Source of the DNA: Sphingomonas sp.
GTDB taxonomy: Bacteria; Pseudomonadota; Alphaproteobacteria; Sphingomonadales; Sphingomonadaceae
Length of the DNA stretch: 64,000 nucleotides
Direction of reading: 5' to 3'
Assembly: GCF_036269755.1 (NCBI RefSeq)
Contig: NZ_DATBDV010000006.1
Coordinates: forward strand, 489 to 64,488
Both the position numbers and the translations under genes were made by a program. The first letter of the stretch is position 1; every line of letters starts with the position of its first letter. The notes beneath the pieces are model-generated. The model was given only the letters and a program-made list of their open reading frames with translations, was not told where the DNA came from and did no database searches. Below, piece after piece: positions 5,790-26,486 of the stretch.

Positions 5790-6370
5790 TGCGCCAATCC
5801 GACGCCCAGCAGGACGGCCGCCGGCGGCGATCGCAAACCAGCCGTGACAAGATCGTCGCGGCGATGCTTGAGCTCGTTGCCGAAGGGCGGATCACCCCGA
5901 GCGCCGAAGAGGTCGCGGCGCGCGCCAAGGTGGGCCTGCGCACCGTGTTCCGCCACTTCGCCGACATGGAAAGCCTCTACGCGGCGCTGACGCACACGCT
6001 CGCCGAGCAATATGAGATGTGGCTGATCCCGTTCGAATCAAGCCACTGGCGCGAGCAGTTGATCGAAGTGATCGAGCGCCGCACCGCGACTTACGAACGC
6101 CTGCTGCCGTTCAAGTGCGCCGGCGACGCGCACCGTCACATGTCGCCGTCGATGCAGAATCAATATGCGCGCGTGCTGGGAATCATGCGGCAGCGCCTGC
6201 ACTCGTTCCTGCCGCGGTCGATCGTCGAGGATCCGACGCGTTTCGAGCTGATCGACCTGATGCTCAGCTTCGAGGTCTGGCAGCGGCTGCGCGGCGAGCA
6301 GCAGCTGGAAAGCGACCAGGCGCACCGGATCGTCAGCGCGGAGATTCTGCGCCTAGCGGAGGAGTCCTGA
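5789..6370 (+). CDS. TetR/AcrR family transcriptional regulator
   Basis: HTH EEVAARAKVGLRTVFRHF; TGATG overlap with the sulfatase stop codon. Confidence 0.9.
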   Translation: MRQSDAQQDGRRRRSQTSRDKIVAAMLELVAEGRITPSAEEVAARAKVGLRTVFRHFADMESLYAALTHTLAEQYEMWLIPFESSHWREQLIEVIERRTATYERLLPFKCAGDAHRHMSPSMQNQYARVLGIMRQRLHSFLPRSIVEDPTRFELIDLMLSFEVWQRLRGEQQLESDQAHRIVSAEILRLAEES

Positions 6371-6696
6371 GCTCTCGCTATAGAGAGGTTGCCGACGTCA
6401 CGCCGGTTAAGCGAAGTTTGGCAATTACTTGGCTCCGCATGGCAAGTCTCGAGACAGCCGGCGAGCGCGATTCCGCCACCCCGTTGATTACACTGCGAGT
6501 CGCGTCGCACGCGATTCCCGCCAAGCCTGTCCCAAATTTTTTCCGCACGGACAGCAAGTATTAAACTTTGACGCAAATTCAGACGCTTAAAAGCAAGCTA
6601 CAATTCGCGACCTCGAACGAAATCGCCTCCGGGAGTGCTTCCACTCCGGCCACAAACGGCTTATGGTGTCGCACCGGTTTACCATCAGGGGGTATC

Positions 6697-7692: not shown

Positions 7693-7698
7693 TCGACC

Positions 7699-7726
7699 GG
7701 GCGCCGGGCTCCCCAGCCCGGCGCCC
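7699..7726. terminator. 12-bp perfect GC hairpin after the beta-helix gene
   Basis: GGGCGCCGGGCT-cccc-AGCCCGGCGCCC; no U-tract. Confidence 0.5.
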
Positions 7727-7765
7727 TACCGGTCCGCGGCCCTGCGACGTCGCAGCGTGCCGGAC

Positions 7766-7806
7766 AAAAGAAAAGCCCGGCGACCAAGCCAGTCGCCGGG
7801 CTTTCT
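7766..7806 (-). terminator. Intrinsic terminator for the precursor transcript (possibly bidirectional)
   Basis: 13-bp stem AAAGCCCGGCGAC/GTCGCCGGGCTTT, followed on the minus strand by a T-rich tract. Confidence 0.75.
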
Positions 7807-7838
7807 CGTAAGGGCGATACCGCCCTGACCGATCGTGA

Positions 7839-7979
7839 CTACGAAAGGCTGGCTTCGTTGGTGAAACCGCCTGACGTTTCCGCGCTTCCAGCCAGGAAAC
7901 GATCCACCGCCGGACGTTCCCAGGTGGGACGCGGTGCAGGATTGCGAGTGCTTACGTCCCGCTTAGGCTCATTGGTCAT
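7839..7979 (-). CDS. Lasso-type RiPP precursor peptide, 46 aa (MTNEPKRDVSTRNPAPRPTWERPAVDRFLAGSAETSGGFTNEASLS)
   Basis: AGGGGA RBS; WxxPxV leader motif; G/S-rich core with a single Glu; C-terminal Ser; lies directly downstream of the cyclase gene and has its own terminator. Confidence 0.8.
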   Translation of the reverse strand: MTNEPKRDVSTRNPAPRPTWERPAVDRFLAGSAETSGGFTNEASLS

Positions 7980-8013
7980 GCGTTCGTCCCCTGTTAAATT
8001 CGAACTCGAAACG

Positions 8014-8043
8014 GACATAACATTCGATCTGCCGTGCTGCCAA
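8014..8043 (-). promoter_or_regulatory. Putative housekeeping-sigma promoter for the precursor gene
   Basis: TTGGCA (-35-like) and GTTATGTC (resembles the Caulobacter-type GCTANAWC -10) on the minus strand at sigma70-like spacing. Confidence 0.35.
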
Positions 8044-8094
8044 GGATTAATTGCGCATCCGCTTCCGGACGAGCCGCACATTCGCGGACGCAGC

Positions 8095-10035
8095 TCACGC
8101 GTTGCTGCCTGAAGCCTTGCGCATGAAATGGCCGCTGGTGACGCCGCGCGCGAGCGCCTGACGATACGGCATGTCGATGTCGGGCCGGTTCCATCCGCCG
8201 TCCGGCCACTGCTCGATCAGGCGCAACATACGCTCGACGTCCAGCGCGGTCGCCGCGGCGGGCACGTCCGCCAATCGGGATACCTCGTCGCGCAAGTGTT
8301 CGCGCGCCGCGGTCAGGCCTTCGTGCCAATCGATGGATTGTGCTCCGCGTCTTCGTTCCGACAACACGGCTGGCGGCAAGCGATCGGCCAGCGCATCGAG
8401 CGCGAGTGCGCGTGGCCGCCCGTCGCGCAGGAACATCTCCATCGGCACCGAAAGGCAGAACTCGATCAGCCGCCGATCGGTGCTGACGTCGCGAATGTCG
8501 GTCCCCCAGCCGGCGAGTGCGCCCTTCTGGTTATTGCCGAAATCAACTCGCCGCAGGATCCACAGACGCGTCTCGAACCCGTTCCGCCGCGGCCGATACG
8601 ACAGGTCGAGCGCATGCTCGCGCGCGCGTCGCTCGATCCCCAGTTCGTTGAAGCGGCGCATGTTGCTCGCGGTGTAGACCGACACGTCCGGGACGGGGTG
8701 GTTCTTGGCCCGATTGAGCGCGCGCCACATGGCATCGGGAAGCCAAGGCCCGAACGCCTGGACTAAGGCGCCCCCCGCGCGCATGCCCGTCTCGCGCATC
8801 GTCGCCCGCGCGGTTTGCCACAAGCGAAGCCAGTGCAGCTTGGCGGCCTGCTCGGCGAACAGCTCCAGCCCCGCATAGCTGAAGGTCGCGTTGCCCATCG
8901 TTGCCGAGAGCACGACCCCCGCGCCGCGCTTCTGCGCCGCGCCGTTGATCGCGTTCCACCAATGCTGAATGTCGCTGTTCAACAGCGGTCGGTCGAACAG
9001 GTAGAAGTCGCGGTCGAGATCGTCGAGCATCGTCCGCGCACCGGTCCTGACCGTGACATGCTCGACATTGGGATAGAGCCCGGCGGTCGCCGCGGCGAGC
9101 GCGCTTTCGTCGCCGATGCGATTGGCGGGAACGAAGCCGTCATAGCCCGCCCGCGGTGCCGAAGTGAACGCGAGCACCCGACCCCCGCTTTGCGCCATGA
9201 GCCGCGCCGCCGTCGCGGTCGTCGCCCCGCTATCGAGCCCGCCGCTCAAATGCGTGGCGACAAGGCCGTTAGTCCCGCGCAGACGCGCCGCAATCGCGCG
9301 GTCGAGCTGTTCGCGGAGCGCTTCGGCATAATCCGTCGGCCTGCCGAGCTTCAACAGTCCGGGCGAAGGCTCCCAATGGCGCGTCGTTGCCACGCCGGAG
9401 CGCGAGACCGTGACGATCTGCCCCGCCTCGACCCGACTGACGCCTTCGTAAAAGCTGCGCGGGCCGTATTCCGGCAGCAGCGCGAGGAATTCCGCATTGC
9501 GCACCGCGTCCGGCGCGCGCGGAACCCGCTCGAGCGCGTGCAGTCCCTTGGGCATCGACGCAACCGCCACGAACCCGTCCGCCAAGTGATAATGGAGCGC
9601 TCGGCCGCCGATATGGTCGCGGGCGAGCACCAACTGCTGCTCGGCCGAGTCCCATAACACGAACGCATAATCGCCCGCGATATGCTCGAACAATGCGCTG
9701 CCCCAGCGCTCCCAGGCGCGGAGCAGGAACGCGGAATCGGGCAGCATCACGGAGTCTTGCGGATCGATCGCCAGCGCGCTCGCCAGGTCGTCGCGATTGT
9801 CGAGACGCACGTCCGCGACGAGGACGAAGCGTCCGCCACCGCCGACCAGCGGCTGGCGGTCGTACCGGTCCTCCGCGAGCAATTGATAGCGGCAGCAGCC
9901 CAGCGCGATCGCGCCATCGTCCCAATCGACGTTGCCGTGTGGCCCGTACATGCGTTGTGCGGCCATGATGCGGCCGCAATCGGCAAGCGCGTCGGGCCGG
10001 CCGTCGATGTTCCAGATCGCCGCCAAGGCGGTCAT
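8095..10035 (-). CDS. Lasso cyclase-like macrolactam synthetase (asparagine synthetase fold)
   Basis: ATP-pyrophosphatase loop HLSGGLDSG; RDHIGGRALHY; DRRLIEFCLSVP; the N-terminus (MTALAAIW) lacks the catalytic Cys of glutamine-hydrolysing AsnB; adjacent to RRE and B2 genes. Confidence 0.9.
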   Translation of the reverse strand: MTALAAIWNIDGRPDALADCGRIMAAQRMYGPHGNVDWDDGAIALGCCRYQLLAEDRYDRQPLVGGGGRFVLVADVRLDNRDDLASALAIDPQDSVMLPDSAFLLRAWERWGSALFEHIAGDYAFVLWDSAEQQLVLARDHIGGRALHYHLADGFVAVASMPKGLHALERVPRAPDAVRNAEFLALLPEYGPRSFYEGVSRVEAGQIVTVSRSGVATTRHWEPSPGLLKLGRPTDYAEALREQLDRAIAARLRGTNGLVATHLSGGLDSGATTATAARLMAQSGGRVLAFTSAPRAGYDGFVPANRIGDESALAAATAGLYPNVEHVTVRTGARTMLDDLDRDFYLFDRPLLNSDIQHWWNAINGAAQKRGAGVVLSATMGNATFSYAGLELFAEQAAKLHWLRLWQTARATMRETGMRAGGALVQAFGPWLPDAMWRALNRAKNHPVPDVSVYTASNMRRFNELGIERRAREHALDLSYRPRRNGFETRLWILRRVDFGNNQKGALAGWGTDIRDVSTDRRLIEFCLSVPMEMFLRDGRPRALALDALADRLPPAVLSERRRGAQSIDWHEGLTAAREHLRDEVSRLADVPAAATALDVERMLRLIEQWPDGGWNRPDIDMPYRQALARGVTSGHFMRKASGSNA

Positions 10036-10146
10036 TGCCTGTCCGTCCCCCAAACGCCCAACTCGGCGGAAGGCTTCGAAGTCGCATCGCGCGCCGCGCC
10101 ATGCAAGCCGCTTTTCGATTCGATCCACGATGGCTAGGGACGGCGG

Positions 10147-11079
10147 ATGCCGAGCGAGGTCCGCCATTATCGATTGTTCGGCCTGACGCTGGCGTCGGCG
10201 ATCGAATTACCCGACTTGCGCGAAGTGACGGAGTCGCGCCCGGACGTAACGATTACGATCGGTGAGGTGCCGATGCCGGCGCAATTGTCGGAGGTCGGGC
10301 TCAACCTCGTCGACGACGCTGCCGTCCTGCCGGTCGTTGGTGCGGGTCGCTATCGCGTGCGCGGCGGCACATCGATCCAAATCGATCCCGAGCCCGGCGC
10401 ACCGGCCGCGAATATCCGACTGTTCCTGCTTGGCTCTGCGATGGGAGCGTTGTTGCACCAGCGGGGGATGCTGCCGCTCCACGCCAATGCGATCGACGTC
10501 GGGGGCAGGGCGATCGCCTTTATCGGCCGGTCGGGGGCGGGCAAGTCGACGCTCGCCGCCGCGTTCCACGACCACGGCTGCGCGCTCCTGTCGGACGATA
10601 TCTGTGTCGTGACCGAGGGCCCCGACGGCGGCCAGTGCGCCCAACCCGGAATCCCGCGCGTGCGGTTATGGCGCGATGCGGTCGAACGCAGCGGTCGAGA
10701 CGCCGCTGGCCTGGATGTTGCTTATGCCGGGGTGGAGAAATATGTCCTGCAGATCGGCGAGACCTACGCCGATACGCCGCTGCCGCTCGCCGCGATCTAC
10801 GTGCTCGCCGAGCCGGATGAAGGCGATGCTCCCCCCGAAATCGCGCCGATCACGGGCGCCGCGGCAATCCGCGCACTCGCCGTCAACACCTACCGCGGCG
10901 CGTACGTGCCCCTTGTCGGCAGTCCGGCGGACCATTTCGCGCAATGCCAAGCGCTAGTCCGCGACGTTCCGATTTTCCTGCTTCGTCGTCCCTGGCGCGC
11001 CGATCGGATCGACGAGACCGTCCGCCTGGTCACCGCGCAAGTTGCGCGTGTCAGCGAGGATCGCCACTTTCCGAAATAA
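10147..11079 (+). CDS. HPr kinase-like lasso-peptide kinase
   Basis: LHANAI, GRSGAGKST (Walker A) and LLSDD motifs in lasso-cluster context. Confidence 0.88.
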   Translation: MPSEVRHYRLFGLTLASAIELPDLREVTESRPDVTITIGEVPMPAQLSEVGLNLVDDAAVLPVVGAGRYRVRGGTSIQIDPEPGAPAANIRLFLLGSAMGALLHQRGMLPLHANAIDVGGRAIAFIGRSGAGKSTLAAAFHDHGCALLSDDICVVTEGPDGGQCAQPGIPRVRLWRDAVERSGRDAAGLDVAYAGVEKYVLQIGETYADTPLPLAAIYVLAEPDEGDAPPEIAPITGAAAIRALAVNTYRGAYVPLVGSPADHFAQCQALVRDVPIFLLRRPWRADRIDETVRLVTAQVARVSEDRHFPK

Positions 11080-11353
11080 TCACGATGCCGTCGCTCGACA
11101 GGTCTTGCAGCAGGTCGCGGACATCCGCCTCGCACGTCGCGGGATCGACCTCGAACTCTTCGGCCAACGCCGCGCAAATCTCCGCGAACGACCGGGGCTG
11201 CTCGATCAACTGCCAAGTCCGCGTCGCGGTCGCGTTGAACCCGTAGCACATGCCGTTGCCGATATGCAGGCCGACGATCTCGCCATCCATTTCGGCCTCG
11301 ATCAGCCCGGCGCCTCGCCGCACCAGAATGTTGCTCGTATCGCTCCAATCCAT
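11051..11353 (-). CDS. PqqD-family RiPP recognition element (B1/RRE)
   Basis: 100 aa; EMDGEIVGL...YGFNATATRTWQLIEQPRSFAEICAALAEEFEVD..TCEADVRDLLQDL is the PqqD pattern; it is the C-terminal part of track ORF 11051..11965. Confidence 0.9.
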   Translation of the reverse strand: MDWSDTSNILVRRGAGLIEAEMDGEIVGLHIGNGMCYGFNATATRTWQLIEQPRSFAEICAALAEEFEVDPATCEADVRDLLQDLSSDGIVIISESGDPR

Positions 11354-11455
11354 CGCGCGCTTCCAGCATAACGGGGTGCGACGTTCAAGTTCGGCCGGGC
11401 GCATGGCGGCAGGAAACCCGTTGCGGGACTCGTCCGGCTGCGACAAACGGGGCGG

Positions 11456-11878
11456 GTGGGGCGACACGGGATCACGGATTGGGCGTTGGCCGCCGAAGCA
11501 TTCGCGTCGCTCGCGGTCGCGCGGCTGACGCTGCTGGTCGTGCCGTTCCCGGTGCTGGCGAAACGTCTGTCGGCGCCGCTTGTCAAACGCCGCTCGGTTT
11601 CCGCCGCCATTCCCCGGCGCGTCGGCTGGGCGGTCGCAGCGGCGGGCCGGCACAGCCCGATACGGTTCGTCTGTTTTCCGCAAGCGCTGGCGGCAAGGGC
11701 AATGCTGCATCGGCGCGGGGTTCCGACGATGCTGCATTACGGTGTTGCCAAGACCGAGGGCAAAGTTCACGCGCATGTCTGGCTGAGCGCGGCGGGCACC
11801 GACGTCGTCGGATACGTCAATAAAGCGGATTTCAAGCTGGTCGCGACGTTTCCTGCGCAAGCGATTTGTGCGGAATGA
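11456..11878 (+). CDS. Lasso leader peptidase B2 (transglutaminase-like); start uncertain
   Basis: CFPQALA (catalytic Cys), LHYGV and HAHVWL (His) motifs. Confidence 0.88.
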   Translation: MGRHGITDWALAAEAFASLAVARLTLLVVPFPVLAKRLSAPLVKRRSVSAAIPRRVGWAVAAAGRHSPIRFVCFPQALAARAMLHRRGVPTMLHYGVAKTEGKVHAHVWLSAAGTDVVGYVNKADFKLVATFPAQAICAE

Positions 11879-13104
11879 CGATGCCCGGCGCGCCTGGCTT
11901 GCGGGGAAAGGCGACGGACAGGAACGCGGCAATGCGCTTTCTGTGCCTTCTCTGTTCGCAAGCAACGCCCGATGGCTCGGCGGACGCCGCCGCGCTCGCG
12001 AGGCGCATCGCCGACTGGAACGCGTTCGAGCACCTGGTGGCGCGCCATCGGGTGGCCGGGCTGGTGCATGCCGGGCTCAAACGCCAACCGCAGATCGTCG
12101 TCCCTGTTACCCCGCGTCAGTCGATCGCGGGCGCTGCCGCGACGATCGCGCGCGAGAACATGGCGATGGCGCTGGAGACGGTGCGGCTTCAGCGGCTGTT
12201 CGACGAAGCCGGTGTGGACGCGATCTTCTTCAAGGGCGCGACGCTGGCGCAGCAGGTCTACGGTACTTTCGCGATCCGGCACGGCAAGGACGTGGATTTC
12301 GTCGTTTCGCCGGGCGACGTCGAACGATGCGTCGCGCTGCTCGAGCAAGACGGTTACGCGCTGTTCGATCTGCCGTCGCCGCTCAGCCCGCGGCAGTGGC
12401 GCGGGCTGCTGCAGTTCGCGATGGAGATCGTCATGATCCATCGCGACCGGCACATTCAGATCGAACCGCACTGGCAGCTTAGCGACAACAGGCGGCTCCT
12501 ACCGCTCGCAACGCTGGCCCGGTCGGCGAGCAAGGAATGGACCCGGATCGGCGACGTCGCGATCAGGACGTTCCATCCCGACGACTCGTTCGCGTATCTC
12601 TGCATGCACGGGGCGCGAAGCGGCTGGTATCGCCTGAAATGGCTGACGGACATCGACGCGCTCCTCAACCCCGCAGGGGAGGACGATCTTGTAAGGCTTT
12701 ATCGTCATTCCGAAAGCTTGGGCGTCGGTCCGGCAACGGCGCTTGCACTATCGCTCTATGCCCAGCTGTTCGGGCGCCCGGTCCCGGCCGAAATACTCGC
12801 TCGCGTAAGTGGCAACTGGACGTTGCGAAGGCTGCGATCCTTGAGCCTTTCCAATCTCGATCGGCCGCGGTCGATGCCGGGTGCGCGTCGCACATTCATG
12901 CTGCACATGCTGCTCGCCGCGGCACACGGCTATCTGCTGTCCGAGCTCTGGCGGTGGAGCGTCTCGGTGATTGACGTCGTCAGGGTTCCGCTCCCGCGAC
13001 CGCTTCACTTCCTGTACCCGGCCTTGCGGTTCCCCCTTTTGATCGGACGGCGGGTCGCGGCCTTGTTCGCCAAAAGCTCGGCTGATGACGCCCCCGCAGC
13101 CTAG
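11875..13104 (+). CDS. Nucleotidyltransferase family protein (lasso-cluster associated)
   Basis: FKGATLAQQVYG..IRHGKDVDFVV, IEPHWQL and WYRLKWLTDID motifs; ATGA overlap with B2. Confidence 0.85.
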   Translation: MTMPGAPGLRGKATDRNAAMRFLCLLCSQATPDGSADAAALARRIADWNAFEHLVARHRVAGLVHAGLKRQPQIVVPVTPRQSIAGAAATIARENMAMALETVRLQRLFDEAGVDAIFFKGATLAQQVYGTFAIRHGKDVDFVVSPGDVERCVALLEQDGYALFDLPSPLSPRQWRGLLQFAMEIVMIHRDRHIQIEPHWQLSDNRRLLPLATLARSASKEWTRIGDVAIRTFHPDDSFAYLCMHGARSGWYRLKWLTDIDALLNPAGEDDLVRLYRHSESLGVGPATALALSLYAQLFGRPVPAEILARVSGNWTLRRLRSLSLSNLDRPRSMPGARRTFMLHMLLAAAHGYLLSELWRWSVSVIDVVRVPLPRPLHFLYPALRFPLLIGRRVAALFAKSSADDAPAA

Positions 13105-15588: not shown

Positions 15589-15611
15589 ATCAAACGAATA
15601 TGTTGTTTGAT
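15589..15611. promoter_or_regulatory. Candidate operator ATCAAAC-N9-GTTTGAT at the NRPS operon start
   Basis: Perfect 7-bp AT-rich inverted repeat overlapping the first possible start codons. Confidence 0.3.
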
Positions 15612-17457
15612 GGCGCTCATGACCAGCCAATCTTCCCAAGCTCGGGCGTCGTCCGAAGCGTTCGCCTTTGTTCCCAGTGCAGCGGGTGTTCCCGCCGATG
15701 CGATCACGCGCGTGGCGCGCGCGCATCCCGACCGGACCGCATTGATAGCGCCCTGCGGGACGCTCAGCTATGGCGAGTTGCTCGACCGCGCGGACCGCGT
15801 TGCGGCGTGGCTGCGAACCAAGGGCGTCGGCGCGGAAAGCCTGGTCGGTATTTGCATGGAGCGGTCGTTTGACCAGCTGACGGTCGCGCTGGGCATATGG
15901 AAAGCGGGCGGCGCCTATCTGCCGCTCGATCCATCCTGGCCCGACGGCCGCTTGCGGATGATCGTCGAGGATGCCGCGTGCGCGGTCGTGGTCGGCCGCA
16001 ATGAGGTGGTCGAGCGGCTGGCGGGGGTCGATACCCCGGTCGTCGCGCTCGACTGGAACACCTTGCCCGCCGCCGAGGAAGCGTCCGCGACGCCGGTCGA
16101 TGCGGAGGGCTTGGCCTATGTGATTTACACCTCGGGCACGACCGGCAAGCCCAAGGGCGTCGAGGTGAGCCACGGCAACCTCGCGCATCTGATCGCGTGG
16201 CATAACCACGCGTTCGGCGTGACCGCCGACGATCGCGGCAGTCACCTTGCCGGGCTCGGGTTCGACGCCTCGATCTGGGAAGTCTGGCCGTATCTCTGCG
16301 CCGGTGCCTCGGTCGTGCTCGCGCCCGATGAGGTCCGCACCTCCGACACCAAGCTGCGCGCCTGGCTGATCGTTCAGGGCGTCACCGTCGCGTTCGTTCC
16401 CACCGCGCTGGCGCAGGAGCTGATCCGCGACGATTGGGCGAGCGGCGCCAAGTTGCGCTACCTGCTGACCGGCGCCGACCGTCTGCTCGGGCGTCCCCGC
16501 GCGGGGTTGCCGTTCGCGCTGGTCAACAATTACGGTCCGACCGAATGCACCGTGGTCGCGGCGTCCGAAGTCGTGCCGCCCGAAGCGGTAGAGAAGGGTA
16601 TCCCGGCAATCGGCCGCCCGATCGGCGCGACGACGATCCACATCCTCGGCGCCGAAGGCCAGCCGGTCGCAACCGGCGAGCAGGGCGAAATCTTCATCGG
16701 CGGGCCGTCGGTCGCGCGTGGTTACCGCCACCTGCCGGCGATGACCGCCGAGAAGTTCGTGACGATCGCCGGGGAGCGCTGCTATCGCACCGGCGACCGC
16801 GGATCGTGGCGACCGGACGGGCAGATCGCGTTCCATGGCCGGGTCGATGACCAGGCCAAGGTGCGCGGCCATCGCGTCGAGCCCGAGGAAACCGCGCATG
16901 TGCTGCGCGAGCATCCCGCGGTCCGCGCCGCCGCGGTGATCGCGGCGCCGGCCGCCGATGGCAGCGACATGCTGGTCGGCTATGTCGTCGCCAGCGACAC
17001 CGTCACCGCCGAGGATCTGCGCGATCACCTCGCCAATACGCTTCCCGAATATATGATCCCATCCGCATTCGTGCGGATCGACGCGCTGCCGCTCACCGCC
17101 AACGGAAAGCTCGACAAGAAGGCGCTGCCCGAACCGTCGGACGACAATGCGCTGGCGTCGGCCGGGTTCGCCACCGCGCAGACCGCGGCGGAGGAACGGC
17201 TGGTCGAGATCCTGACCGCGGTGCTCGGCCGCGGCAATGTCGGGATCGACGACAATTTCTTCCTGCTCGGCGGGCATTCGCTGCTCGGCACCCAAGTCGT
17301 GCTGCGCGCCGGCGAAGCGTTCGGCATCGACCTGACGCTGCGCGACCTGTTCCAGGCGCCGACGATCCGTCAGCTCGCGGCGCGGATCGAGGAAATCTTC
17401 CTGCGCATGATCGATGAAATGAGCGACGACGAAGCGCAAGCGCGCGCCGCCGAATAG
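15607..17457 (+). CDS. Stand-alone NRPS A-T didomain, predicted Leu-specific (start at 15607, 15610 or 15619)
   Basis: A3 YVIYTSGTTGKPKG, YGPTE, YRTGD and NGKLD; PCP FFLLGGHSL; specificity code read by eye as DAWFLGNVVK, the Leu signature. Confidence 0.92.
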   Translation: MMALMTSQSSQARASSEAFAFVPSAAGVPADAITRVARAHPDRTALIAPCGTLSYGELLDRADRVAAWLRTKGVGAESLVGICMERSFDQLTVALGIWKAGGAYLPLDPSWPDGRLRMIVEDAACAVVVGRNEVVERLAGVDTPVVALDWNTLPAAEEASATPVDAEGLAYVIYTSGTTGKPKGVEVSHGNLAHLIAWHNHAFGVTADDRGSHLAGLGFDASIWEVWPYLCAGASVVLAPDEVRTSDTKLRAWLIVQGVTVAFVPTALAQELIRDDWASGAKLRYLLTGADRLLGRPRAGLPFALVNNYGPTECTVVAASEVVPPEAVEKGIPAIGRPIGATTIHILGAEGQPVATGEQGEIFIGGPSVARGYRHLPAMTAEKFVTIAGERCYRTGDRGSWRPDGQIAFHGRVDDQAKVRGHRVEPEETAHVLREHPAVRAAAVIAAPAADGSDMLVGYVVASDTVTAEDLRDHLANTLPEYMIPSAFVRIDALPLTANGKLDKKALPEPSDDNALASAGFATAQTAAEERLVEILTAVLGRGNVGIDDNFFLLGGHSLLGTQVVLRAGEAFGIDLTLRDLFQAPTIRQLAARIEEIFLRMIDEMSDDEAQARAAE

Positions 17458-17466: not shown

Positions 17467-18729
17467 ATGACCGACCAAGCACCGATCAAGGCGGCCGCCG
17501 CGCTCGACCCGAGCCTGAGCCTGTTCCAGCTGCTCGAGCCGGCGATCCACGCCGACCCGTTCCCGTTCTACAAGCGCCTGCGCGAGGAAGCGCCGGTGGC
17601 GTGGGACCCGTTCATGCACACCTGGGTCGTCACTCGGTACGAGGACGTCCATTTCGTGCTGAAGGAATTCAGCGCGGATCGCACGCCCGACGTCGCCAAG
17701 ATGGAGGCGCTCGGCCTGCCGTCGCTCGGCCCGGTCGCCGATGTGATGGCCAAGCAGATGCTGTTCCTCGACGCGCCCGCGCACACGCGGCTGCGCAAGC
17801 TCTGCATGAGCGCGTTCACCCCGCGCCGGGTCGAGGCGATGGAAGGCAAGATCCACGAAATCGCGCACCAGCTGATCGACGACCATATCGGCAATGGTCA
17901 GATGGAACTGATCGCCGATTTTGCCGAGCCGTTTCCGGCGATCGTCACCGCCGGTCTGCTCGGCGTGCCGCTCGACGATCATCGCCAGCTCAAGGCGTGG
18001 TCGGCGACCTTCGCGGAGATGCTCGGCAATTTCCAGCATAACCCCGATCGCATCCGCGACGTGCTCAAGTGCGTCGCCGATATGACCGGCTATTTCCGTG
18101 ACGCGGTTCGCGAGCAGGAGCGAAACCCGCACGACGGGCTGATCCGCTCGCTGATGGACGCCGAAGTCGACGGCCAGCGGCTTAGCGAGGACGAGGTCAT
18201 CGCCAACACCATCGTGACGATGGTCGGCGGGCAGGAGACCACGACCAACCTGATGGGCAACGGCCTGCTGACGCTGATCCGCCAGCCCGACAAGCTCGCG
18301 CAGTTGCGCGACAATCCGGAGATCATCGCCAGCGCCGTCGAGGAATTGCTGCGCTTCGAGACCCCAAGCCAGCACACCGCACGGATCTGCCCCGCCGATA
18401 CGATGATGGGCGGCCAATTGATCCGCAAGGGCGAGGCGGTGATGGCGGTGATGGCGGCGGGCAATCGCGATCCGGAACGCTTTGCCGATCCCGACACGCT
18501 CGATCTGACGCGCACCGACAACCGCCATCTGGCGTTCGGCTGGGCGGCGCATTTCTGCTTCGGCGCGGCCTTGGCGCGGATGGAGGCCCGGATCGCGTTT
18601 CCCGCGCTTGTCGGCCGGCTCCAGAACCTCAGCGTGACGAGCGATATCCTCGAATGGCGGACCAATTCCGGACTGCGCGGGCTCACCGCGTTGCCGATCG
18701 CGTTCCGCGCGGGGGAGCGGGCCGCGTGA
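17467..18729 (+). CDS. Cytochrome P450, probably acting on a carrier-protein-bound substrate
   Basis: I-helix GGQETT, EELLR (ExxR) and heme motif FGWAAHFCFG; lies between the two NRPS genes. Confidence 0.95.
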   Translation: MTDQAPIKAAAALDPSLSLFQLLEPAIHADPFPFYKRLREEAPVAWDPFMHTWVVTRYEDVHFVLKEFSADRTPDVAKMEALGLPSLGPVADVMAKQMLFLDAPAHTRLRKLCMSAFTPRRVEAMEGKIHEIAHQLIDDHIGNGQMELIADFAEPFPAIVTAGLLGVPLDDHRQLKAWSATFAEMLGNFQHNPDRIRDVLKCVADMTGYFRDAVREQERNPHDGLIRSLMDAEVDGQRLSEDEVIANTIVTMVGGQETTTNLMGNGLLTLIRQPDKLAQLRDNPEIIASAVEELLRFETPSQHTARICPADTMMGGQLIRKGEAVMAVMAAGNRDPERFADPDTLDLTRTDNRHLAFGWAAHFCFGAALARMEARIAFPALVGRLQNLSVTSDILEWRTNSGLRGLTALPIAFRAGERAA

Positions 18730-21700
18730 ACGCCCACGCCGCGCTGTCGGATTCGAAACGACAGTTGCTCGAAAAGATGATGCGCGGCGGCATCGCGCCC
18801 GCCGACAAGCCCGCACCGATCCAGCCGCGCCGGCCGGGCGCGGCGATCCCGCTATCGGCCGACCAGCGCCAGGTGTGGCTCCACGCCATCATGGCGCCGG
18901 ACGTGCCGCTGTATAACGAATCGATCACGATCCATCGCTTCGGCAGCTTCGATCGCGACGCGATGGCGCGCAGCGTCAACGAGATATTGCGCCGTCACGA
19001 AGCGTGGCGGACGGCGTTCGTCGAAGAAGCGGGCGAGCTCGTCCAGCACGTCCGTCCGCACCGCGACATCGAGCTGCCGTTCGACGATGTCAGCCACTTG
19101 CCGGAAGACCAGCGCGATGCCGCCGCGCTCAAGATCGGCAGCGATGACGCCCGCCGCGCGATCGACCTGTCCGACGCCCCATTGTTCCGCGCGCGGATCG
19201 TCAAGCTGTCCGACGACAATCACCGGCTCTATTTCACGCTCCACCACATCATCTTCGATGGCGTCGCGATCTATCGCGTGATCGTGCCCGAACTGGCGGC
19301 GATCTATGAAGCGTTCGCGCGCGGCGAGCCGTCGCCGCTGCCGATGCCGGCATTGCAATATGGCGACTATGCGATCTGGCAGCGGGAGCATCTCAAGAGC
19401 GCGCCGATCCAGAAGCAGATCGATTATTGGCGCACGACGTTGGCCGACGCGCCGGCCAAGCTCGAAATCCCCGGTGACCGCATCAAGGCGGCGCGGCCGA
19501 CGCACGCCGGGTCGATGGAAGTGTTCCAGATCCCGCACGATCTGACCGAGGCGTTGAAGGAGGCGAGCCGGCGCGAAGGCGTGACGCTCTACATGACCTT
19601 GCTCGCGGCCTATCACGCGCTGCTGCATCGTTATTCGGGCGAGGAGGACATTATCGTCGGCGGGGTCACCGATCTTCGCCGCCGGCCCGAGCTCGACCAG
19701 GTGGTCGGCTATTTCCTCAACACCATCGCATTGCGCGCCAAGCCGAAGGGCGACCTCGCATTTCGCGATTTCGTGCGCCACGTGCGCGAGACCGTGCTCG
19801 GCGCGCTCGGCGCGAGCGAGGCGCCGTTCGACGAGGTGGTGCGCGCGCTCGACGTGCGGCGCGAGCCCGGCACGCATCCTTTGTTCAACTGCCTGTTCTC
19901 GATCGAGCCGCCGGTCGAGCCGTTCGCCGACGGCTGGGACTTGACCCAGATGGACGTGGTGGTCGGGGGCGCGAAGTTCGACCTCTACCTCGAACTCGAC
20001 GAGCGGCCCGACGGGATGATCGGGCGGTTCCTCTATTCGACCGAGCTTTACGATCCATCGACGATCCGCCGGATGATCGGGCATTGGCTCACGATATTGC
20101 GCGCGGTGGCCGAGGACATGGGGTGCCCGATCCGCGACTTGCCGTTGCTCGATTCGGTGGAGTCGCAGTTGCTGGTCGACTGGAACAACACCGCGCGGCG
20201 GCACAAGGCGAAATTGCTGGTCGAGGCGGTCTCGGCGCAGGCGAAGGCGCGGCCCGATGCGGTGGCGGTGCGGTTCGGCGACCAGTCGATAAGCTACGCC
20301 GCGCTCGATGCCCGGGCGCAAGCCATCGCCGCGGCGTTGCGCGCGGCAGGGTTGGGCAAGAGCGACCTCGTCGGCGTCTGTCTCGATCGCTCGACCGACA
20401 TGGTTGCAGGGTTGCTTGGCGTGTTGCGGATCGGCGCGGCGTACCTTCCGCTCGATCCCGACTTCCCGCCGGCGCGGCTCGATTACATCGTCGGGGAGGC
20501 CGGCGCCAAGGCGTTGCTATCCGAACGCAAGCTGGATGCCGTGCTGCCCGGATGCGCGCTGCCGCGCGTCCTGGTGGACGATATCGGCGCTTCGGCGACC
20601 GACGTGCCCGCTGCGGAAATCGCCGCCGGCGACCTTGCCTATGTCCTCTACACCTCGGGCTCGACCGGCCGCCCCAAGGGCGTCGAGATCAGTCACGGCG
20701 CGCTGATCAACCTGCTCGCGTCGATGCGCGAGCAGCCTGGGTTCGGCGCGGGCGATTCGTTGCTCGCAGTCACCACCCTGTCGTTCGACATCGCGATGCT
20801 CGAACTGTTCCTGCCGCTGATCGCCGGCGGCGAGTTGATCGTCGCGCCGCGCAACAGCGCAGTCGATCCGCGCGCGCTGATCGACCTGATCCATACTGCC
20901 AACCCGAGCGTCATGCAGGTGACCCCAGCGACGTGGCGCGCGCTGGTCGAGGCCGGTTGGCAAGGCTCACCGAGCTTGCGGGTTCTGTGCGGCGGCGAAG
21001 CCTTCCCGCGCGACCTGGCCGAAGCGTTGCTGATGCGTGCGGGCGAGGTGTGGAACGTCTATGGCCCCACCGAGACCACGATCTGGTCGACCGTCGCGCG
21101 CGTGACCGGCAGCACCGGCCCGGTCCCGATCGGCCGCCCGATCGCCAACACGAGCATCCACATCCTCGACCGCTACGGCAACACCGCGCCGATCGGCGTG
21201 ACCGGCGAATTGTTCATCGGCGGCGCGGGTCTCGCGAAGGGCTATCGCAACCGTCCCGATCTTACCGCGGAGCGCTTCGTCGAGGTGCGCGGCGAGCGGC
21301 TCTACCGCACCGGCGACCTCGCGCGCTGGCGTCCGGACGGGACAATCCTGTGCCTCGGCCGTGTCGACAATGACGAGAAGATTCGCGGCTATCGCGTGTC
21401 AGTCGAGGAGATCGAGGGTGCGCTCGCAACGCATCCTGAGGTTGCCGCCGCCGCCGTCCGCAGCTGGCCGGACGCGTCGGGTGAACGCGCGCTCGCCGCC
21501 TATGTCGTCGCGCACGGTGGCGCCGAGCCGAGCCGCGCGGAGATGCGCGAGCACCTCGCGCAGACGCTGCCCCAATACATGATCCCCTCGACCATCGAGC
21601 TGTTGCCCGCGCTGCCGATGACGCCCAACGGCAAGATCGACCGCAAGGCGCTGCCCAAGCCGGGCGGGAACGCCGCCGCCGCGATCGAGCCGCCACAGGG

Positions 21701-22718
21701 CGAAACCGAGCAAGCGCTGGCCGCGATCTGGTGCGACATCTTGCGCATCCCCGCGGTCGGCCGCGACGACAGTTTCTTCGAGCTCGGCGGTCATTCGTTG
21801 CTCGTCGCGCGGCTGCTCGTGCGGATCGAGCAGCATTGGGGCCGCCGCATCGGCATGGCAGAATTCTTCGGCGCGCCGGTGCTCTCCAAGCTCGCCACAC
21901 TGATCGACGGTGACGCCGGCGTCGAGGTGGGCGCGCTCGTCCCGCTCCAGCCGCTCGGCGACGAACTGCCGCTATTGTGGATCGATGGCGGCCCGACCTT
22001 CCTGGCGCTTGCCAACGCGATGGGCACTGATCGGCCGTTCCTCGGCCTCGCGCTCGGCCCGATCCTCGAGCGCGACCTCAAGCCCGGCATGCGGTTCGAG
22101 GATATCGCCGCCGCCGTGGTTGCGGTGATCCGCCAGCGCCGCCCGCGCGGACCGTATCTAATCGGCGGCTGGTGCACCAACGGCATCCTGGCGTTCGAGA
22201 TCGCGCGCCAGCTTCGCGCCGACGGCGACGACGTTCCGCTGCTGGCACTCGGCCACACGATGAATCCGGTCGCGTTCCAGGAGATCACCACCGCGCAGAT
22301 GCGGATGAGCAAGGCGCGCTACCATCTCGGCGTGTGGAACAGCCTGCCGTTCAACCGGCGCCTCGGCTATGCCCTCGAGCGCGCGCGCGGGATGCTGGAG
22401 GAAGTCGGCATGGCCGACGCCGACCGCCCGGACGGCCGCTATCGGCCTTTCGCGGCGGTGATGGAGCAGGCGGCGTACGGCTACACGCCCGGCGTCTATG
22501 ACGGCGCGGTCGCGTTGTTCCAGCCGACCGAACGCCTCGACGTGCTCGACACGCGGCCGGGTTGGGCGACCATCGTTACGGGCCCGCTCCAAGCGCACGA
22601 CATTCCCGGCAGCCACGGCACGATGACCGAGCCGCCCAATGCCGACGTCTTCGCGGCCCGGCTGCGCGACTCGATCGAGCGCGCCTTGAAGCCCGGACAG
22701 AGCGCGGCGGCAGCGTGA
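18726..22718 (+). CDS. NRPS termination module C-A-T-TE, predicted Gly-specific, Cys-type thioesterase
   Basis: C domain HHIIFDG; A domain YTSGSTGRPKG with code DILQLGVIWK (Gly signature); PCP FFELGGHSL; TE GGWCTNG...GSHGTM; GTGA overlap with the P450. Confidence 0.93.
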   Translation: MNAHAALSDSKRQLLEKMMRGGIAPADKPAPIQPRRPGAAIPLSADQRQVWLHAIMAPDVPLYNESITIHRFGSFDRDAMARSVNEILRRHEAWRTAFVEEAGELVQHVRPHRDIELPFDDVSHLPEDQRDAAALKIGSDDARRAIDLSDAPLFRARIVKLSDDNHRLYFTLHHIIFDGVAIYRVIVPELAAIYEAFARGEPSPLPMPALQYGDYAIWQREHLKSAPIQKQIDYWRTTLADAPAKLEIPGDRIKAARPTHAGSMEVFQIPHDLTEALKEASRREGVTLYMTLLAAYHALLHRYSGEEDIIVGGVTDLRRRPELDQVVGYFLNTIALRAKPKGDLAFRDFVRHVRETVLGALGASEAPFDEVVRALDVRREPGTHPLFNCLFSIEPPVEPFADGWDLTQMDVVVGGAKFDLYLELDERPDGMIGRFLYSTELYDPSTIRRMIGHWLTILRAVAEDMGCPIRDLPLLDSVESQLLVDWNNTARRHKAKLLVEAVSAQAKARPDAVAVRFGDQSISYAALDARAQAIAAALRAAGLGKSDLVGVCLDRSTDMVAGLLGVLRIGAAYLPLDPDFPPARLDYIVGEAGAKALLSERKLDAVLPGCALPRVLVDDIGASATDVPAAEIAAGDLAYVLYTSGSTGRPKGVEISHGALINLLASMREQPGFGAGDSLLAVTTLSFDIAMLELFLPLIAGGELIVAPRNSAVDPRALIDLIHTANPSVMQVTPATWRALVEAGWQGSPSLRVLCGGEAFPRDLAEALLMRAGEVWNVYGPTETTIWSTVARVTGSTGPVPIGRPIANTSIHILDRYGNTAPIGVTGELFIGGAGLAKGYRNRPDLTAERFVEVRGERLYRTGDLARWRPDGTILCLGRVDNDEKIRGYRVSVEEIEGALATHPEVAAAAVRSWPDASGERALAAYVVAHGGAEPSRAEMREHLAQTLPQYMIPSTIELLPALPMTPNGKIDRKALPKPGGNAAAAIEPPQGETEQALAAIWCDILRIPAVGRDDSFFELGGHSLLVARLLVRIEQHWGRRIGMAEFFGAPVLSKLATLIDGDAGVEVGALVPLQPLGDELPLLWIDGGPTFLALANAMGTDRPFLGLALGPILERDLKPGMRFEDIAAAVVAVIRQRRPRGPYLIGGWCTNGILAFEIARQLRADGDDVPLLALGHTMNPVAFQEITTAQMRMSKARYHLGVWNSLPFNRRLGYALERARGMLEEVGMADADRPDGRYRPFAAVMEQAAYGYTPGVYDGAVALFQPTERLDVLDTRPGWATIVTGPLQAHDIPGSHGTMTEPPNADVFAARLRDSIERALKPGQSAAAA

Positions 22719-23380
22719 CTCTGACGATCGACCTGTCGCAGACCAACGAGGTCGTGCTGGTCGAGCTCGAAGTGGCGCCTGCTGCGCTCGCGAATTTCCA
22801 CGCGACGCTCGATTCCGGCGAGCGTGAGTGCGCGAGCCGGTTCCGCTTCGCGCGCGACCGCGACCGCTACATCGCGCGGCGGGGACAACTGCGAGCGTTG
22901 CTCGCCGAAAGGACCGGCGAGCGAACCGCCGCGCTGCGCATCGCGGCAGACGCGTACGGCAAGCCGTTCCTCGTTGACCGTCCCAAGCTCCACTTCAGCC
23001 TCTCGCACTCGCATGGCCGCGCATTGTTTGCGTTCGGCTGCGAGGCAATCGGGTGTGACCTCGAATGGCGCAATCCCGAGCTCGCCTGCCGCAGCGTCGC
23101 CGCGCGGCTGTTCGCGCCCGCCGAGGTCGCCGCGCTCGACGCGCTTCCCGCCGAGCAATGGGTCGCGGGGTTCTACAATTGCTGGACGCGCAAGGAAGCG
23201 TTCGTGAAGGCGATCGGCCTCGGACTGTCCTATCCGCTCGATGCGTTCGAGGTTTCGGTCGATAAGGCCGCGCGTTTCGTCACCGGCGCGGCAGGGTGGT
23301 CGCTCGTGTCGTTCGAACCCGCGCCCGGTTTTCAGGCAGCGCTGGTGACTCGCTTGCCCGAGGGTGCGACCGCCGGCTGA
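22715..23380 (+). CDS. Sfp-type 4'-phosphopantetheinyl transferase
   Basis: YGKP, HFSLSHS, IGCDLE and FYNCWTRKEAFVKAIGLGL motifs; GTGA-coupled to the NRPS. Confidence 0.93.
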   Translation: MTLTIDLSQTNEVVLVELEVAPAALANFHATLDSGERECASRFRFARDRDRYIARRGQLRALLAERTGERTAALRIAADAYGKPFLVDRPKLHFSLSHSHGRALFAFGCEAIGCDLEWRNPELACRSVAARLFAPAEVAALDALPAEQWVAGFYNCWTRKEAFVKAIGLGLSYPLDAFEVSVDKAARFVTGAAGWSLVSFEPAPGFQAALVTRLPEGATAG

Positions 23381-24852
23381 TACGGCTTGCCGCGCGCCAT
23401 CGAGATCGCTTCCAGCACGACATCGCGCGTGAACAGCATCAGCCAGCCGGCATAGACCGCCGCGCCCAGCCCGACCAATGCCAGCAGCCGCAGCTGCACC
23501 GCCATCTGCGGCAGTACATCGTCGAGAAGCATCACCAGCGCCCCCATCGCGAGCGCCGCCCCGATCGTCGGCGCGATCGCGCGGGCCAGTGCGGTCGCCC
23601 TGAGCCCGATCACCGGCAGCACCCGCACCGCGGTGATCGCGAGGTAGATCGGGTAGGCGACAAACCAGGAAGCGGCGAGCCCGGTCACACCCCAGCGCAA
23701 CCCGACCAGGAAACAAGCTGGCAGCAACACCGCGCCGATCGCACCGATATGGACGGTGATCCCTGGGCGGCCCATCGCGCTGCACGCCGGGCTGAACAGC
23801 ACTTGTAGCGTCATCATCGGCATCGCCAGCGCGAGCAATTGCACCAGCGGTGCCGCGTCGACCCATTTTGGCCCGAGCACGGTCGCGACCAGCGGCTGCG
23901 CGGTCACCGCAAGCCCGATGTAGAACGGCATCGCCACCAGCATCACCATCCGCGCCGACCGCGCGAATCCCTCGGCCACTGCGGAGCGGTTGTCCTGCAT
24001 CCGGGCATAGATCGAGAACGCGACATCGTTGATCGCTGGAACGAATTTCGACACCAGGATCTGGGTCAGGAACAGCCCGGTCGTGTAGAGGCCGAGCGTC
24101 GCCGGGTCGAGGACGCGCCCCGCGATGAACACGTCGGCCTGGCTCTGCAGGAACCAGAACAACTGCCCAGCCGCCATCAGCCCGCCGAACTTCGCGAGCG
24201 CGCCAGATCCGCGGAAATCGAACAATGGGCGGTAATGGTGCCCCGATGCGACCGTCATCCCGATTGCGCGCGTGACGTACAGCACCGCGGGCGCCGCGAT
24301 CAGCGTCCACACGCCGAGCCCGGTATAAGCCCCCGCCAGCGCGGTCAGCGCGCCCGTCACCGACGACAGCAGGTAAACCCGCGCCTGGTGCTTGAAGTCG
24401 ATCGCGCGGGCGAGCAGCGCATACGGGAACGCGACGAACGGCGTCGTGAAATAGAGGAAGGACTGGACGCGCAACAGGTCGGCGACGATCGGCTGGCGAA
24501 AATAGGCGGCGACGACGGGCGCCATCGCGAATTGCAGCGCGCCGAGCGAAAAATTGAGCACGATCAGCATGCCGTACAGCTGCCGCACCGTGCGCTCGTC
24601 GGCGTCGGGCTTTTGGATCAGCCCGCTCGCGAGGCCTGCGCCGTTGAGCATGTTGAGCATCGCCAGCACGACCTGAGTCATTGCGAACAGGCCGTAATCG
24701 TTCGGATTCAGGATGCGGATCACCAAAAACGTCGCCGCCCAGGTGATGATCTGGCCGACGATCTGCGCGCCCGACCGCCAGATTACCGCACGCCGCGCCT
24801 GCGCGAACAGCGGCTCGGGTTCGGAATCGAGCGGATCGGACGGAGACTGCAT
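23332..24852 (-). CDS. Wzx/PST-family oligosaccharide flippase
   Basis: IRILNPNDYGLFAM, GL.SGLIQK, LGLYTTG and LGPKW motifs; 12 or more hydrophobic segments; convergent 49-bp overlap with the PPTase gene. Confidence 0.88.
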   Translation of the reverse strand: MQSPSDPLDSEPEPLFAQARRAVIWRSGAQIVGQIITWAATFLVIRILNPNDYGLFAMTQVVLAMLNMLNGAGLASGLIQKPDADERTVRQLYGMLIVLNFSLGALQFAMAPVVAAYFRQPIVADLLRVQSFLYFTTPFVAFPYALLARAIDFKHQARVYLLSSVTGALTALAGAYTGLGVWTLIAAPAVLYVTRAIGMTVASGHHYRPLFDFRGSGALAKFGGLMAAGQLFWFLQSQADVFIAGRVLDPATLGLYTTGLFLTQILVSKFVPAINDVAFSIYARMQDNRSAVAEGFARSARMVMLVAMPFYIGLAVTAQPLVATVLGPKWVDAAPLVQLLALAMPMMTLQVLFSPACSAMGRPGITVHIGAIGAVLLPACFLVGLRWGVTGLAASWFVAYPIYLAITAVRVLPVIGLRATALARAIAPTIGAALAMGALVMLLDDVLPQMAVQLRLLALVGLGAAVYAGWLMLFTRDVVLEAISMARGKPYQPAVAPSGKRVTSAA

Positions 24853-25325: not shown

Positions 25326-26486
25326 ATGGGGCATTTCGGTGATTACCAGAACGAGATCTACGGCGCCGGCTTGCGCGGCGTGCTGACCAAGCTGCCGGTG
25401 GACTTCGCCACGCTGGTCGAGCGCGCGACCGCGGCGATGCCCGGCCACGTGCTCAACTACGTCCAGGGCGGCTGCGGCGACGAATGGACTCAGGACAGCA
25501 ACGCCGCGGCGTTCCGCCATTGGGGCATGGTGCCGCGAATGATGGTCGGCACCACGCAACGCGACCTGTCGAACACGATTTTCGGCCACACCTATCACAG
25601 CCCGATCTTCATGAGCCCGATCGGCGTCACCGGCATGTGCTCGCAGGACCAGCATGGCGATATCGCGGCGGCGCAGGCGTCGGCGATGACCGGGGTGCCG
25701 ATGACGGTCTCGACGCTCGGCAACGACACGATGGAGGATGTGGCAACGCGCCTCGGTGACGTGCCCGGCTTCTTCCAACTCTATACCCCGCGCGACAAAA
25801 ATCTGGCCGAAAGCCTGATCCATCGCGCCGAGGCGGCGGGGTATCGCGCGCTGGTGGTGACGCTCGACACGTGGGTGACCGGCTGGCGCCCGCGCGACCT
25901 CAACGCCGGCAATTTCCCGCAGCTTCGTGGCCACGTGCTGACCAATTACTTTGCCGATCCTGTGTTCCAAAAGATGCTCGGCAAGGATCCGGCGTCGGCG
26001 CCCGCCGAAGCGACGATGCTATGGGCGTCGCAATTCGCGCGGCCGCTGACCTGGGACGACATGGCGTGGCTCAAGTCGGTGACGAAAATGCCGATCGTGC
26101 TCAAGGGCATCTGTCACCCCGACGACGCGAAGAAGGCGGTCGATCTCGGCGCCGATGCCTTGTTCTGCTCGAACCATGGCGGGCGTCAGGCCAATGGCGG
26201 GATCGCGGCGATCGACATGCTACCGGGCGTGGTCGCGGCGGCAGGGAACACGCCGGTGTGGTTCGACAGCGGCATCCGATCGGGCAGCGACGTGATCAAG
26301 GCGCTGGCGCTCGGTGCGAGCGCGGTCGGCGTCGGGCGCCCGTTCGTCTACGGCCTCGCGCTCGATGGCGCGGCGGGCGCGGCGCACGTGCTCAAGTGCA
26401 TCCTGGCGGAGGCGGACCTGATGATGGCGGTGAACGGGATGCCGACGCTGGCGGATGTGCGGAAGGCGGGGGCGGCGCGGGCGTAA
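25326..26486 (+). CDS. FMN-dependent alpha-hydroxy acid oxidase (lactate 2-monooxygenase-like)
   Basis: GWRPRDL, LKGI, SNHGGRQ, DSGIRSGSDVIKALALGA and GRPFVYGL motifs. Confidence 0.92.
   Translation: MGHFGDYQNEIYGAGLRGVLTKLPVDFATLVERATAAMPGHVLNYVQGGCGDEWTQDSNAAAFRHWGMVPRMMVGTTQRDLSNTIFGHTYHSPIFMSPIGVTGMCSQDQHGDIAAAQASAMTGVPMTVSTLGNDTMEDVATRLGDVPGFFQLYTPRDKNLAESLIHRAEAAGYRALVVTLDTWVTGWRPRDLNAGNFPQLRGHVLTNYFADPVFQKMLGKDPASAPAEATMLWASQFARPLTWDDMAWLKSVTKMPIVLKGICHPDDAKKAVDLGADALFCSNHGGRQANGGIAAIDMLPGVVAAAGNTPVWFDSGIRSGSDVIKALALGASAVGVGRPFVYGLALDGAAGAAHVLKCILAEADLMMAVNGMPTLADVRKAGAARA

Follow-up and report, generated by a model that had tools for sequence, protein, structure and literature searches.

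The 64,000-nucleotide stretch of Sphingomonas sp. DNA analysed here (contig NZ_DATBDV010000006.1; hereafter the window) carries a small non-ribosomal peptide synthetase (NRPS) cassette on its forward strand, the last domain of which is a thioesterase (TE) with an unusual active site (table 1). A stand-alone adenylation–thiolation (A-T) protein is followed by a cytochrome P450, by a synthetase with condensation, adenylation, thiolation and thioesterase domains (C-A-T-TE) and by a phosphopantetheinyl transferase (PPTase), and a convergent gene for a Wzx-type flippase closes the group. The flippase is the sole polysaccharide-type gene beside the cassette. The genes are tightly packed: the PPTase starts with a GTG codon that overlaps the TE stop codon, and the flippase gene overlaps the 3′ end of the PPTase gene. 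The longest open reading frame (ORF) of the synthetase begins with an ATG at 18654 and comprises 1354 codons, and the GTG at 18726 is the probable start, since it overlaps the P450 stop codon and an identical database protein is 1330 amino acids (aa) long.

Table 1. Features of the window and their coordinates, strands and supporting annotation.
Feature	Position	Strand	Remarks
Stand-alone A-T protein	15607..17457	+	Pfam AMP-binding, AMP-binding_C, PP-binding; Leu-like code; conserved in 22 loci
Cytochrome P450	17467..18729	+	Pfam p450
C-A(Gly)-T-TE synthetase	18726..22718	+	Pfam Condensation, AMP-binding, PP-binding, Thioesterase
Thioesterase domain, 263 aa as modelled	21927..22715	+	AlphaFold2 model, Foldseek
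Cys nucleophile, codon TGC	22173..22175	+	TE residue 83 = Cys1150 of the 1330-aa protein
Nucleophile elbow (+2 Gly replaced)	22167..22184	+	
His at acid 'position I' (Cys+27), codon CAC	22254..22256	+	TE residue 110 = His1177
Lid	22300..22390	+	Motif K129...H133...Y148...R152
Loop after β7, candidate 'position II' acids	22530..22550	+	Glu202/Asp205/Asp208 = Glu1269/Asp1272/Asp1275
Glu202 codon	22530..22532	+	3′ of strand β7
Asp205 codon	22539..22541	+	3′ of strand β7
Asp208 codon	22548..22550	+	3′ of strand β7
Catalytic His of 'PGSH'	22614..22616	+	TE residue 230 = His1297
Sfp/HetI-type PPTase	22715..23380	+	Pfam ACPS; NCBIfam HetI-like, below cut-off
Wzx-type MOP flippase	23332..24852	-	Pfam Polysacc_synt_3, E 4.6e-63; NCBIfam 'MOP flippase family'
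FMN-dependent alpha-hydroxy-acid dehydrogenase	25326..26486	+	
Lasso-type gene set	7839..13104		Directly upstream of the cassette
Asn-synthase-like cyclase (lasso-type set)	8095..10167	-	
HPr-kinase-like gene (lasso-type set)	10147..11079	+	
PqqD/RRE gene (lasso-type set)	11051..11965	-	
NTP_transf_5 nucleotidyltransferase (lasso-type set)	11866..13104	+	

The likely substrates can be read from the adenylation domains. The stand-alone A-T protein has a Leu-like specificity code, DAWFL(T/G)NVVK, in which the bracketed residue depends on the alignment register, and the TE module has a Gly code, DILQLGVIWK, with residues extracted by alignment to the window's own A domain; both agree with the Leu and Gly calls of the initial annotation of this DNA, made from the letters alone. 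The C domain is of the elongation type, with best PDB matches to Txo1, Txo2 and TycC and a poor match to the C domain of AB3403 from Acinetobacter baumannii, and because it resembles peptide-elongation C domains an aminoacyl (Leu) donor is the natural reading. The P450 is presumed to oxidise carrier-bound Leu or the dipeptide. Action on tethered Leu is suggested by its best solved match, BioI, a P450 that depends on acyl carrier protein (ACP) and likewise uses a carrier-bound substrate.

The TE domain exceeds the PF00975 cut-off (45.2 against 26.4 bits; Pfam), and its AlphaFold2 model, built on a 44-sequence alignment, has a mean predicted local distance difference test (pLDDT) score of 93.3 and the strand order of an alpha/beta-hydrolase. 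With the expected fold and with TE domains as all of its top Foldseek matches, it fits a type-I NRPS/polyketide synthase (PKS) thioesterase. The nucleophile elbow, in frame with the synthetase ORF (18654/18726–22718), reads G-G-W-C-T-N-G, its Cys coming from a TGC codon. In the model, the Cys follows strand 78–82, and a second strand (105–109) ends in 'LALGH', placing His110 directly after it and 27 residues past the Cys (Cys+27). Strand β7 (195–200) leads into the acidic loop T-E-R-L-D-V-L-D, and the His of the PGSH motif follows strand 221–226. Each feature that the initial annotation had pointed out was recovered here: Cys as the nucleophile, the lack of an Asp where one is usual, an acidic stretch beyond the next strand and the catalytic His.

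The Cys+27 site has a clear counterpart in characterised enzymes. It is Asp in AB3403 (counted on the profile-search alignment), and the same spacing separates the nucleophile from the Asp in the TEs of MacB (C89/D116) and BulbE (C961/D988). The acid at position I has therefore been replaced by His in the window TE and is not merely absent. The equivalent residue in ObiF1 (nucleophile C1146) is Gly1173. The Ser-His-Asp triad definition does not describe the window TE, which has a Cys nucleophile, has lost the +2 Gly of the elbow and has His at Cys+27, with the catalytic His kept; the conserved elbow Cys places it among Cys-type TEs, but the Asp expected at position I is missing. Judged by its sequence, the domain is an intact type-I NRPS thioesterase of the Cys type, with a predicted Cys1150–His1297 catalytic pair and His in place of the position-I acid. 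The third member of the triad could be His1177 (Cys-His-His) or Asp1275 or Glu1269 from the β7 loop, or there could be none, leaving a Cys-His dyad.

Both unusual residues are strongly conserved, being kept in some 90 orthologues. The Cys is present in all of the approximately 70 orthologous protein clusters, and among 26 genomic loci it is encoded by TGC in 24 and by TGT in two; the His at Cys+27 is encoded by CAT in 16 and by CAC in nine loci of the same set. Conservation combined with synonymous codon variation indicates purifying selection on these residues and not a sequencing error, so the proviso that the TGC might be a misread Ser codon can be dropped. An error or a decaying domain, as a more general explanation, is ruled out by the conservation, the synonymous codons, the intact ORF and the confident model, and we give it next to no credence.

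When the PDB was searched with the single TE sequence, AB3403 (4ZXH/4ZXI) came first (E 2.9e-12), and the alignment shows its GGWC elbow. The profile search ranked AB3403 (5.8e-45) above Skyxy-TE (7e-39) and NocTE (4e-32), with EntF, the fatty acid synthase (FAS) TE and the Pks13 TE lower down and RifR at 1e-4. Foldseek, run with the TE model, reproduced this ranking, with AB3403 4ZXH as the best match. Neither ObiF1 nor SulM appeared among the 60 profile matches listed or the best 50 Foldseek matches. The initial annotation had drawn on both as precedents for a Cys nucleophile with an Asp relocated after β7; that account of the literature is accurate, but the analogy does not stand as a claim of relatedness. 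NocTE and Skyxy-TE rank second to fourth by sequence and fold, and epimerisation of the kind associated with them is ruled out for the window TE, as the C-terminal Gly is achiral.

Searched exhaustively with HMMER, a set of 1.84 billion cluster representatives yielded 24,575 matches. At least one Cys TE was present in 126 of the 148 nearest scorable representatives, so that Cys is the rule rather than the exception in this branch, and 16 of those 126 also have His at position I. A FastTree phylogeny of 252 TE domains places the window TE within nested clades: 30 rows that are all Cys and all His, then 56 rows containing every His row together with 15 Asp rows, then 67–69 rows that are all Cys (support 99) and finally 137 rows with 93–100% Cys. 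AB3403 lies outside the 137-row clade, and none of the other 196 rows has His at position I. In an IQ-TREE phylogeny of 81 rows, the window TE falls in an all-His clade of 25 rows (SH-like approximate likelihood-ratio test (SH-aLRT) 99), itself inside a 55-row clade that intermixes 40 rows with His and 15 with Asp. By parsimony this 55-row clade requires nine Asp/His changes, and the well-supported branches alone force at least two; each exchange takes a single nucleotide (GAY to CAY). By these trees the TE belongs to a large, mostly uncharacterised branch in which nearly every member uses Cys, and the Asp/His exchange is recurrent and confined to one sub-clade. Among solved structures, the AB3403 TE is the closest to the window TE by sequence and by fold.

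Conservation around the active site adds detail. At position I, His is 100% conserved in the 30-row clade, and His and Asp alternate in the 55-row clade around it. Every member of the all-His clade has an acidic residue, Asp or Glu, at position 202 and Asp at position 208. Asp208 is also frequent (45–81%) in relatives that keep the position-I Asp, so conservation does not decide whether it has taken over as the catalytic acid. The GxSxG elbow has lost its +2 Gly across the 137-row branch, with Asn, Asp, Ser or Ala in its place. Two further features are conserved there, a lid motif (table 1) and an N-P pair after position I, and both are much less marked in the Ser-rich rest of the tree. As a speculation, the basic lid residues might bind an anionic acceptor. 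Both states of position I also occur within one polypeptide: P0125, a metagenomic protein of 482 aa, has two tandem Cys-type TE domains, the first with His and the second with Asp.

Orthologous TEs were found at 24 Sphingomonadaceae or alphaproteobacterial loci in one scan of representative genomes, in hosts that include Sphingomonas mali, S. pruni, S. asaccharolytica, S. oligophenolica, S. parva, Stakelama marina and S. sediminis. The A-T, P450 and C-A-T-TE genes are present together wherever the contig allows, with P450 orthologues (60–89% identical) in all cassettes and a PPTase gene in most loci, and the cassette is kept as a unit in 22 loci whose flanks differ. Its distribution is patchy, with no instance in 150 other Sphingomonadaceae genomes sampled across 112 genera. 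The flippase adjoins the cassette in 18 of the 24 loci, and its identity tracks that of the cassette (71–87% in close loci, 49% in the most distant). Beyond the unit from A-T to flippase, no conservation was seen round the cassette loci compared. Downstream of the cassette in four loci without the flippase, Pfam annotation gave mostly spurious high-GC ORFs and nothing informative.

Two further features of the window lie near the cassette. A gene set of the type that makes lasso ribosomally synthesized and post-translationally modified peptides (RiPPs) is located directly upstream and is not syntenic with the cassette in other genomes. Genes for FMN-dependent alpha-hydroxy-acid dehydrogenases occur near the cassette both in the window and in the metagenomic locus L001 (5493–6743); at just 32% identity between the two proteins, coincidence is the probable explanation.

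The neighbourhoods of more distant relatives gave a stronger signal than the flippase adjacency. Eight loci from metagenomes had readable flanks, and in six of these, annotated with Pfam, the TE gene lies among polysaccharide genes. One is L088 (Cys/Asp, giving the nucleophile and the position-I residue), where a Leu-type A-T, a P450 60% identical to that of the window and a C-A-T-TE synthetase are flanked by genes for sulfotransferases, a GT4 glycosyltransferase, a polysaccharide deacetylase, Wzy_C, WecG and a carbamoyltransferase. Another locus, L096 (Cys/Asp, Gly), combines a WecA-like gene, Bac_transf, GT2, a P450 and C-A-T-TE, and L086 (Cys/Asp, Gly) has a PPTase, GT4, a flippase, Wza, WecG and a Wzz-like gene. 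The relative at L090 (Cys/Asp) lies in an exosortase-type exopolysaccharide (EPS) locus, and that at L089 (Cys/Asp) has GT2 next door. The sixth, L085 (Cys/His, Gly), holds Bac_transf, WecG, two epimerases, A-T, C-A-T-TE, a PPTase and a pterin-dependent hydroxylase. As a rough control, tblastn with 22 polysaccharide marker proteins was run on 56 loci whose Cys TEs are more distant (from cyanobacterial, acidobacterial and other NRPS/PKS enzymes), and only two gave any match.

The cassette of L085 (positions 4008–11441) is a variant in its own right. It has a pterin-dependent aromatic amino-acid hydroxylase (PF00351) where the window has the P450, and its A-T protein carries the code DGTAMAGVEK. 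It shares the Gly module and the Cys/His TE with the window, and it adjoins the Bac_transf, WecG and epimerase genes.

In our best reading, held tentatively, the TE would resolve its Cys thioester by handing the (hydroxy)Leu-Gly group to an amino sugar or glycan acceptor. We favour transfer because of the aminolysis chemistry of thioesters, the Gly substrate and the location of relatives in polysaccharide loci. Leu would be loaded on the stand-alone T domain and then oxidised by the P450, most likely by β-hydroxylation as in NovH/NovI-type pairs; A-T/P450 pairs that β-hydroxylate tethered residues provide the precedent for oxidation of tethered Leu. The C domain would condense (HO)Leu with Gly to give (HO)Leu-Gly-S-T, and the dipeptidyl group would pass to the TE Cys as a thioester, there to be attacked by an external acceptor through its amine (or hydroxyl); an amino sugar linked to a nucleotide or a lipid is the likeliest candidate. 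In effect the TE would act as a peptidyl transferase and decorate a glycan, and the neighbouring flippase would then carry this glycan outward. Acyl-thioesters are more activated than oxoesters for aminolysis, and the characterised Cys TEs form amide or strained-ring bonds, a chemistry that is abolished or undermined by exchange of Cys for Ser, after which hydrolysis prevails. The L088 polysaccharide locus includes a de-N-acetylase, which would expose a sugar amine. Among the fates suggested for the peptide in the initial annotation, transacylation onto an external acceptor appears to gain support from the gene neighbourhoods of the relatives, and a seven-membered lactone appears to gain none. 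The broader proposal, that a branch of NRPS thioesterases has turned into peptidyl transferases, which would hang a short, oxidised peptide ((HO)Leu-Gly) on the amino sugar of a lipid-linked glycan before export by a dedicated Wzx flippase, is more doubtful; in the sub-clade of the window TE, the Cys would then work in a Cys-His-His arrangement whose acid has shifted or become unnecessary. Our literature searches on the cassette and on NRPS modules in polysaccharide clusters returned nothing relevant, and we found no published description of surface polysaccharides being decorated with peptides by such a TE route.

Several observations weigh against glycan transfer. The Sphingomonadaceae cassette adjoins a lone flippase only, with no glycosyltransferase or amino-sugar gene beside it. 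Flippase orthologues (40–61% identical) are found in approximately 60 of the 150 family genomes without the NRPS, and in the three NRPS-less genomes checked there were no polysaccharide markers within approximately 9 kb of the lone flippase. The idea that the flippase travels only with the cassette is ruled out by these orthologues in many cassette-less genomes, and its adjacency in Sphingomonadaceae may be one inherited insertion, amounting to one or two events. Two of the eight distant loci, L001 (Cys/His) and L094 (Cys/Asp), have no polysaccharide genes. The tblastn marker control was also a coarser test than the Pfam annotation applied to the positive loci.

It is only slightly less likely that the product is instead a free small molecule, either the diketopiperazine cyclo((HO)Leu-Gly), closed by the N-terminal amine, or the linear dipeptide released by water. 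The MOP-family protein may then be the exporter, with the released ring as a possible substrate of the P450. Closure of a six-membered ring is favoured by the free N-terminal amine and the flexible C-terminal Gly, thioesters favour aminolysis, and a self-contained cassette with its own PPTase would suit such a product, as would the absence of glycan genes from L001 and L094. The P450 also has as its nearest NCBIfam model the 'cyclodipeptide synthase-associated P450', but this match lies far below the family cut-off (203.8 against 500 bits) and is in line with general P450 similarity, and the P450 gene lies between those for A-T and C-A-T-TE, a position that suggests action on a tethered residue. 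Further points against a free product are the nature of the neighbour, a Wzx/PST-type flippase rather than a MATE-type or ABC exporter, and the polysaccharide genes around most of the distant relatives.

Release by oligomerisation or lactonisation through a hydroxyl installed by the P450 is improbable. It would yield head-to-tail ester-linked cyclodimers or trimers, which can be likened to serrawettin W1 or enterobactin, or a seven-membered lactone. The layout, with a stand-alone A-T feeding one C-A-T-TE module, is that of EntE/EntB/EntF, and a β-hydroxyl would be available on residue 1 if the P450 is a β-hydroxylase. However, EntF and the other known oligomerising TEs use Ser, neither sequence nor context offers a pointer to oligomerisation, the hydroxylation is itself only presumed, and we found no precedent for release of a seven-membered lactone. 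Closure of a strained four-membered ring by an ObiF1/SulM-type TE can be set aside as extremely unlikely: the Cys nucleophile, the lack of a position-I Asp and the acids after β7 formally give the ObiF1/SulM pattern, but the terminal Gly has no β-substituent, which excludes this ring closure and bears out the caveat in the initial annotation that Gly cannot supply the β-nucleophile, neither enzyme is among the listed matches of the searches described above, the motif is W-C-T instead of the Q-C-N of SulM, and close relatives with this cassette have either His or Asp at position I.

Cys-type thioesterases reportedly make up approximately 2% of known TEs, and those characterised make bonds that Ser enzymes cannot, so they are wanted as biocatalysts. 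A large unstudied branch in which Cys is the norm would be a sizeable reservoir of such enzymes. The natural, selected and recurrent exchange of Asp for His bears on whether a Cys-His pair needs a third residue, and the sub-branch tied to polysaccharide loci suggests a testable route for the decoration of bacterial surface glycans with amino acids or peptides. Three points are new: that Asp and His exchange recurrently, that the Leu-P450-Gly cassette is conserved and that an orthologue of it is embedded in a glycan locus. With four to five genes, the cassette is small enough for direct expression and assay.

Of the known systems, AB3403 (ABBFA_003403) is the closest. Like the window synthetase, it has a C-A-T-TE arrangement with a GGWC elbow and is fed by a free-standing A domain and a carrier protein, and it was crystallised with glycine in the A domain as a representative substrate, matching the Gly code of the window. 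Its Cys TE differs from that of the window in keeping the Asp after β6, at Cys+27, and the Gly at elbow +2, and its C domain is only distantly similar. We take its neighbourhood not to be a polysaccharide locus. The TEs of MacB (macolacin) and BulbE (bulbiferamide) share the Cys nucleophile on a type-I scaffold and carry out aminolytic release that is beyond the reach of the Ser variant; they differ from the window TE in having Asp at Cys+27 and in releasing long peptides by intramolecular macrolactam or indolylamide formation. In MacB-TE the Cys is indispensable and the D116S variant is active. For the acid position of Cys TEs, natural substitutions by Asn or Ser have been mentioned in that context, and His has not.

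Comparison with the β-lactone and β-lactam enzymes ObiF1 (obafluorin; Cys1146/His1284/Asp1254) and SulM (sulfazecin; Cys2818/His2956/Asp2926), both with the Asp after β7, indicates a resemblance of pattern and not of descent, as judged from sequence and fold. Shared with the window TE are the Cys nucleophile, a non-acidic position I and an acid available after β7, and their products, like the one predicted for the window, are small. The triads of ObiF1 and SulM resemble that of RifR and space the Asp 30 residues from the His, whereas the candidate acids of the window TE lie 22–28 residues from the His. Both enzymes also need a β-nucleophile on the C-terminal residue, for which the window offers Gly, and the Q-C-N motif of SulM is absent from the window TE.

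The first half of the cassette is reminiscent of the NovH/NovI, NikP1/NikQ and P450sky-type pairs, in which an A-T protein and a P450 β-hydroxylate a tethered amino acid and, as in the window, the gene for a stand-alone A-T protein has a P450 gene immediately downstream; the window P450 differs from NovI, NikQ and P450sky in having BioI as its best solved match. For the proposed transfer step, the D-alanylation of teichoic acids by the Dlt system offers a functional analogy only, comprising adenylation, a carrier protein and aminoacyl transfer to a glycopolymer. The window A domains match DltA models weakly. The Dlt system uses DltB and DltD in place of a TE and moves one D-Ala as an ester, so the analogy implies no homology of the transfer step.

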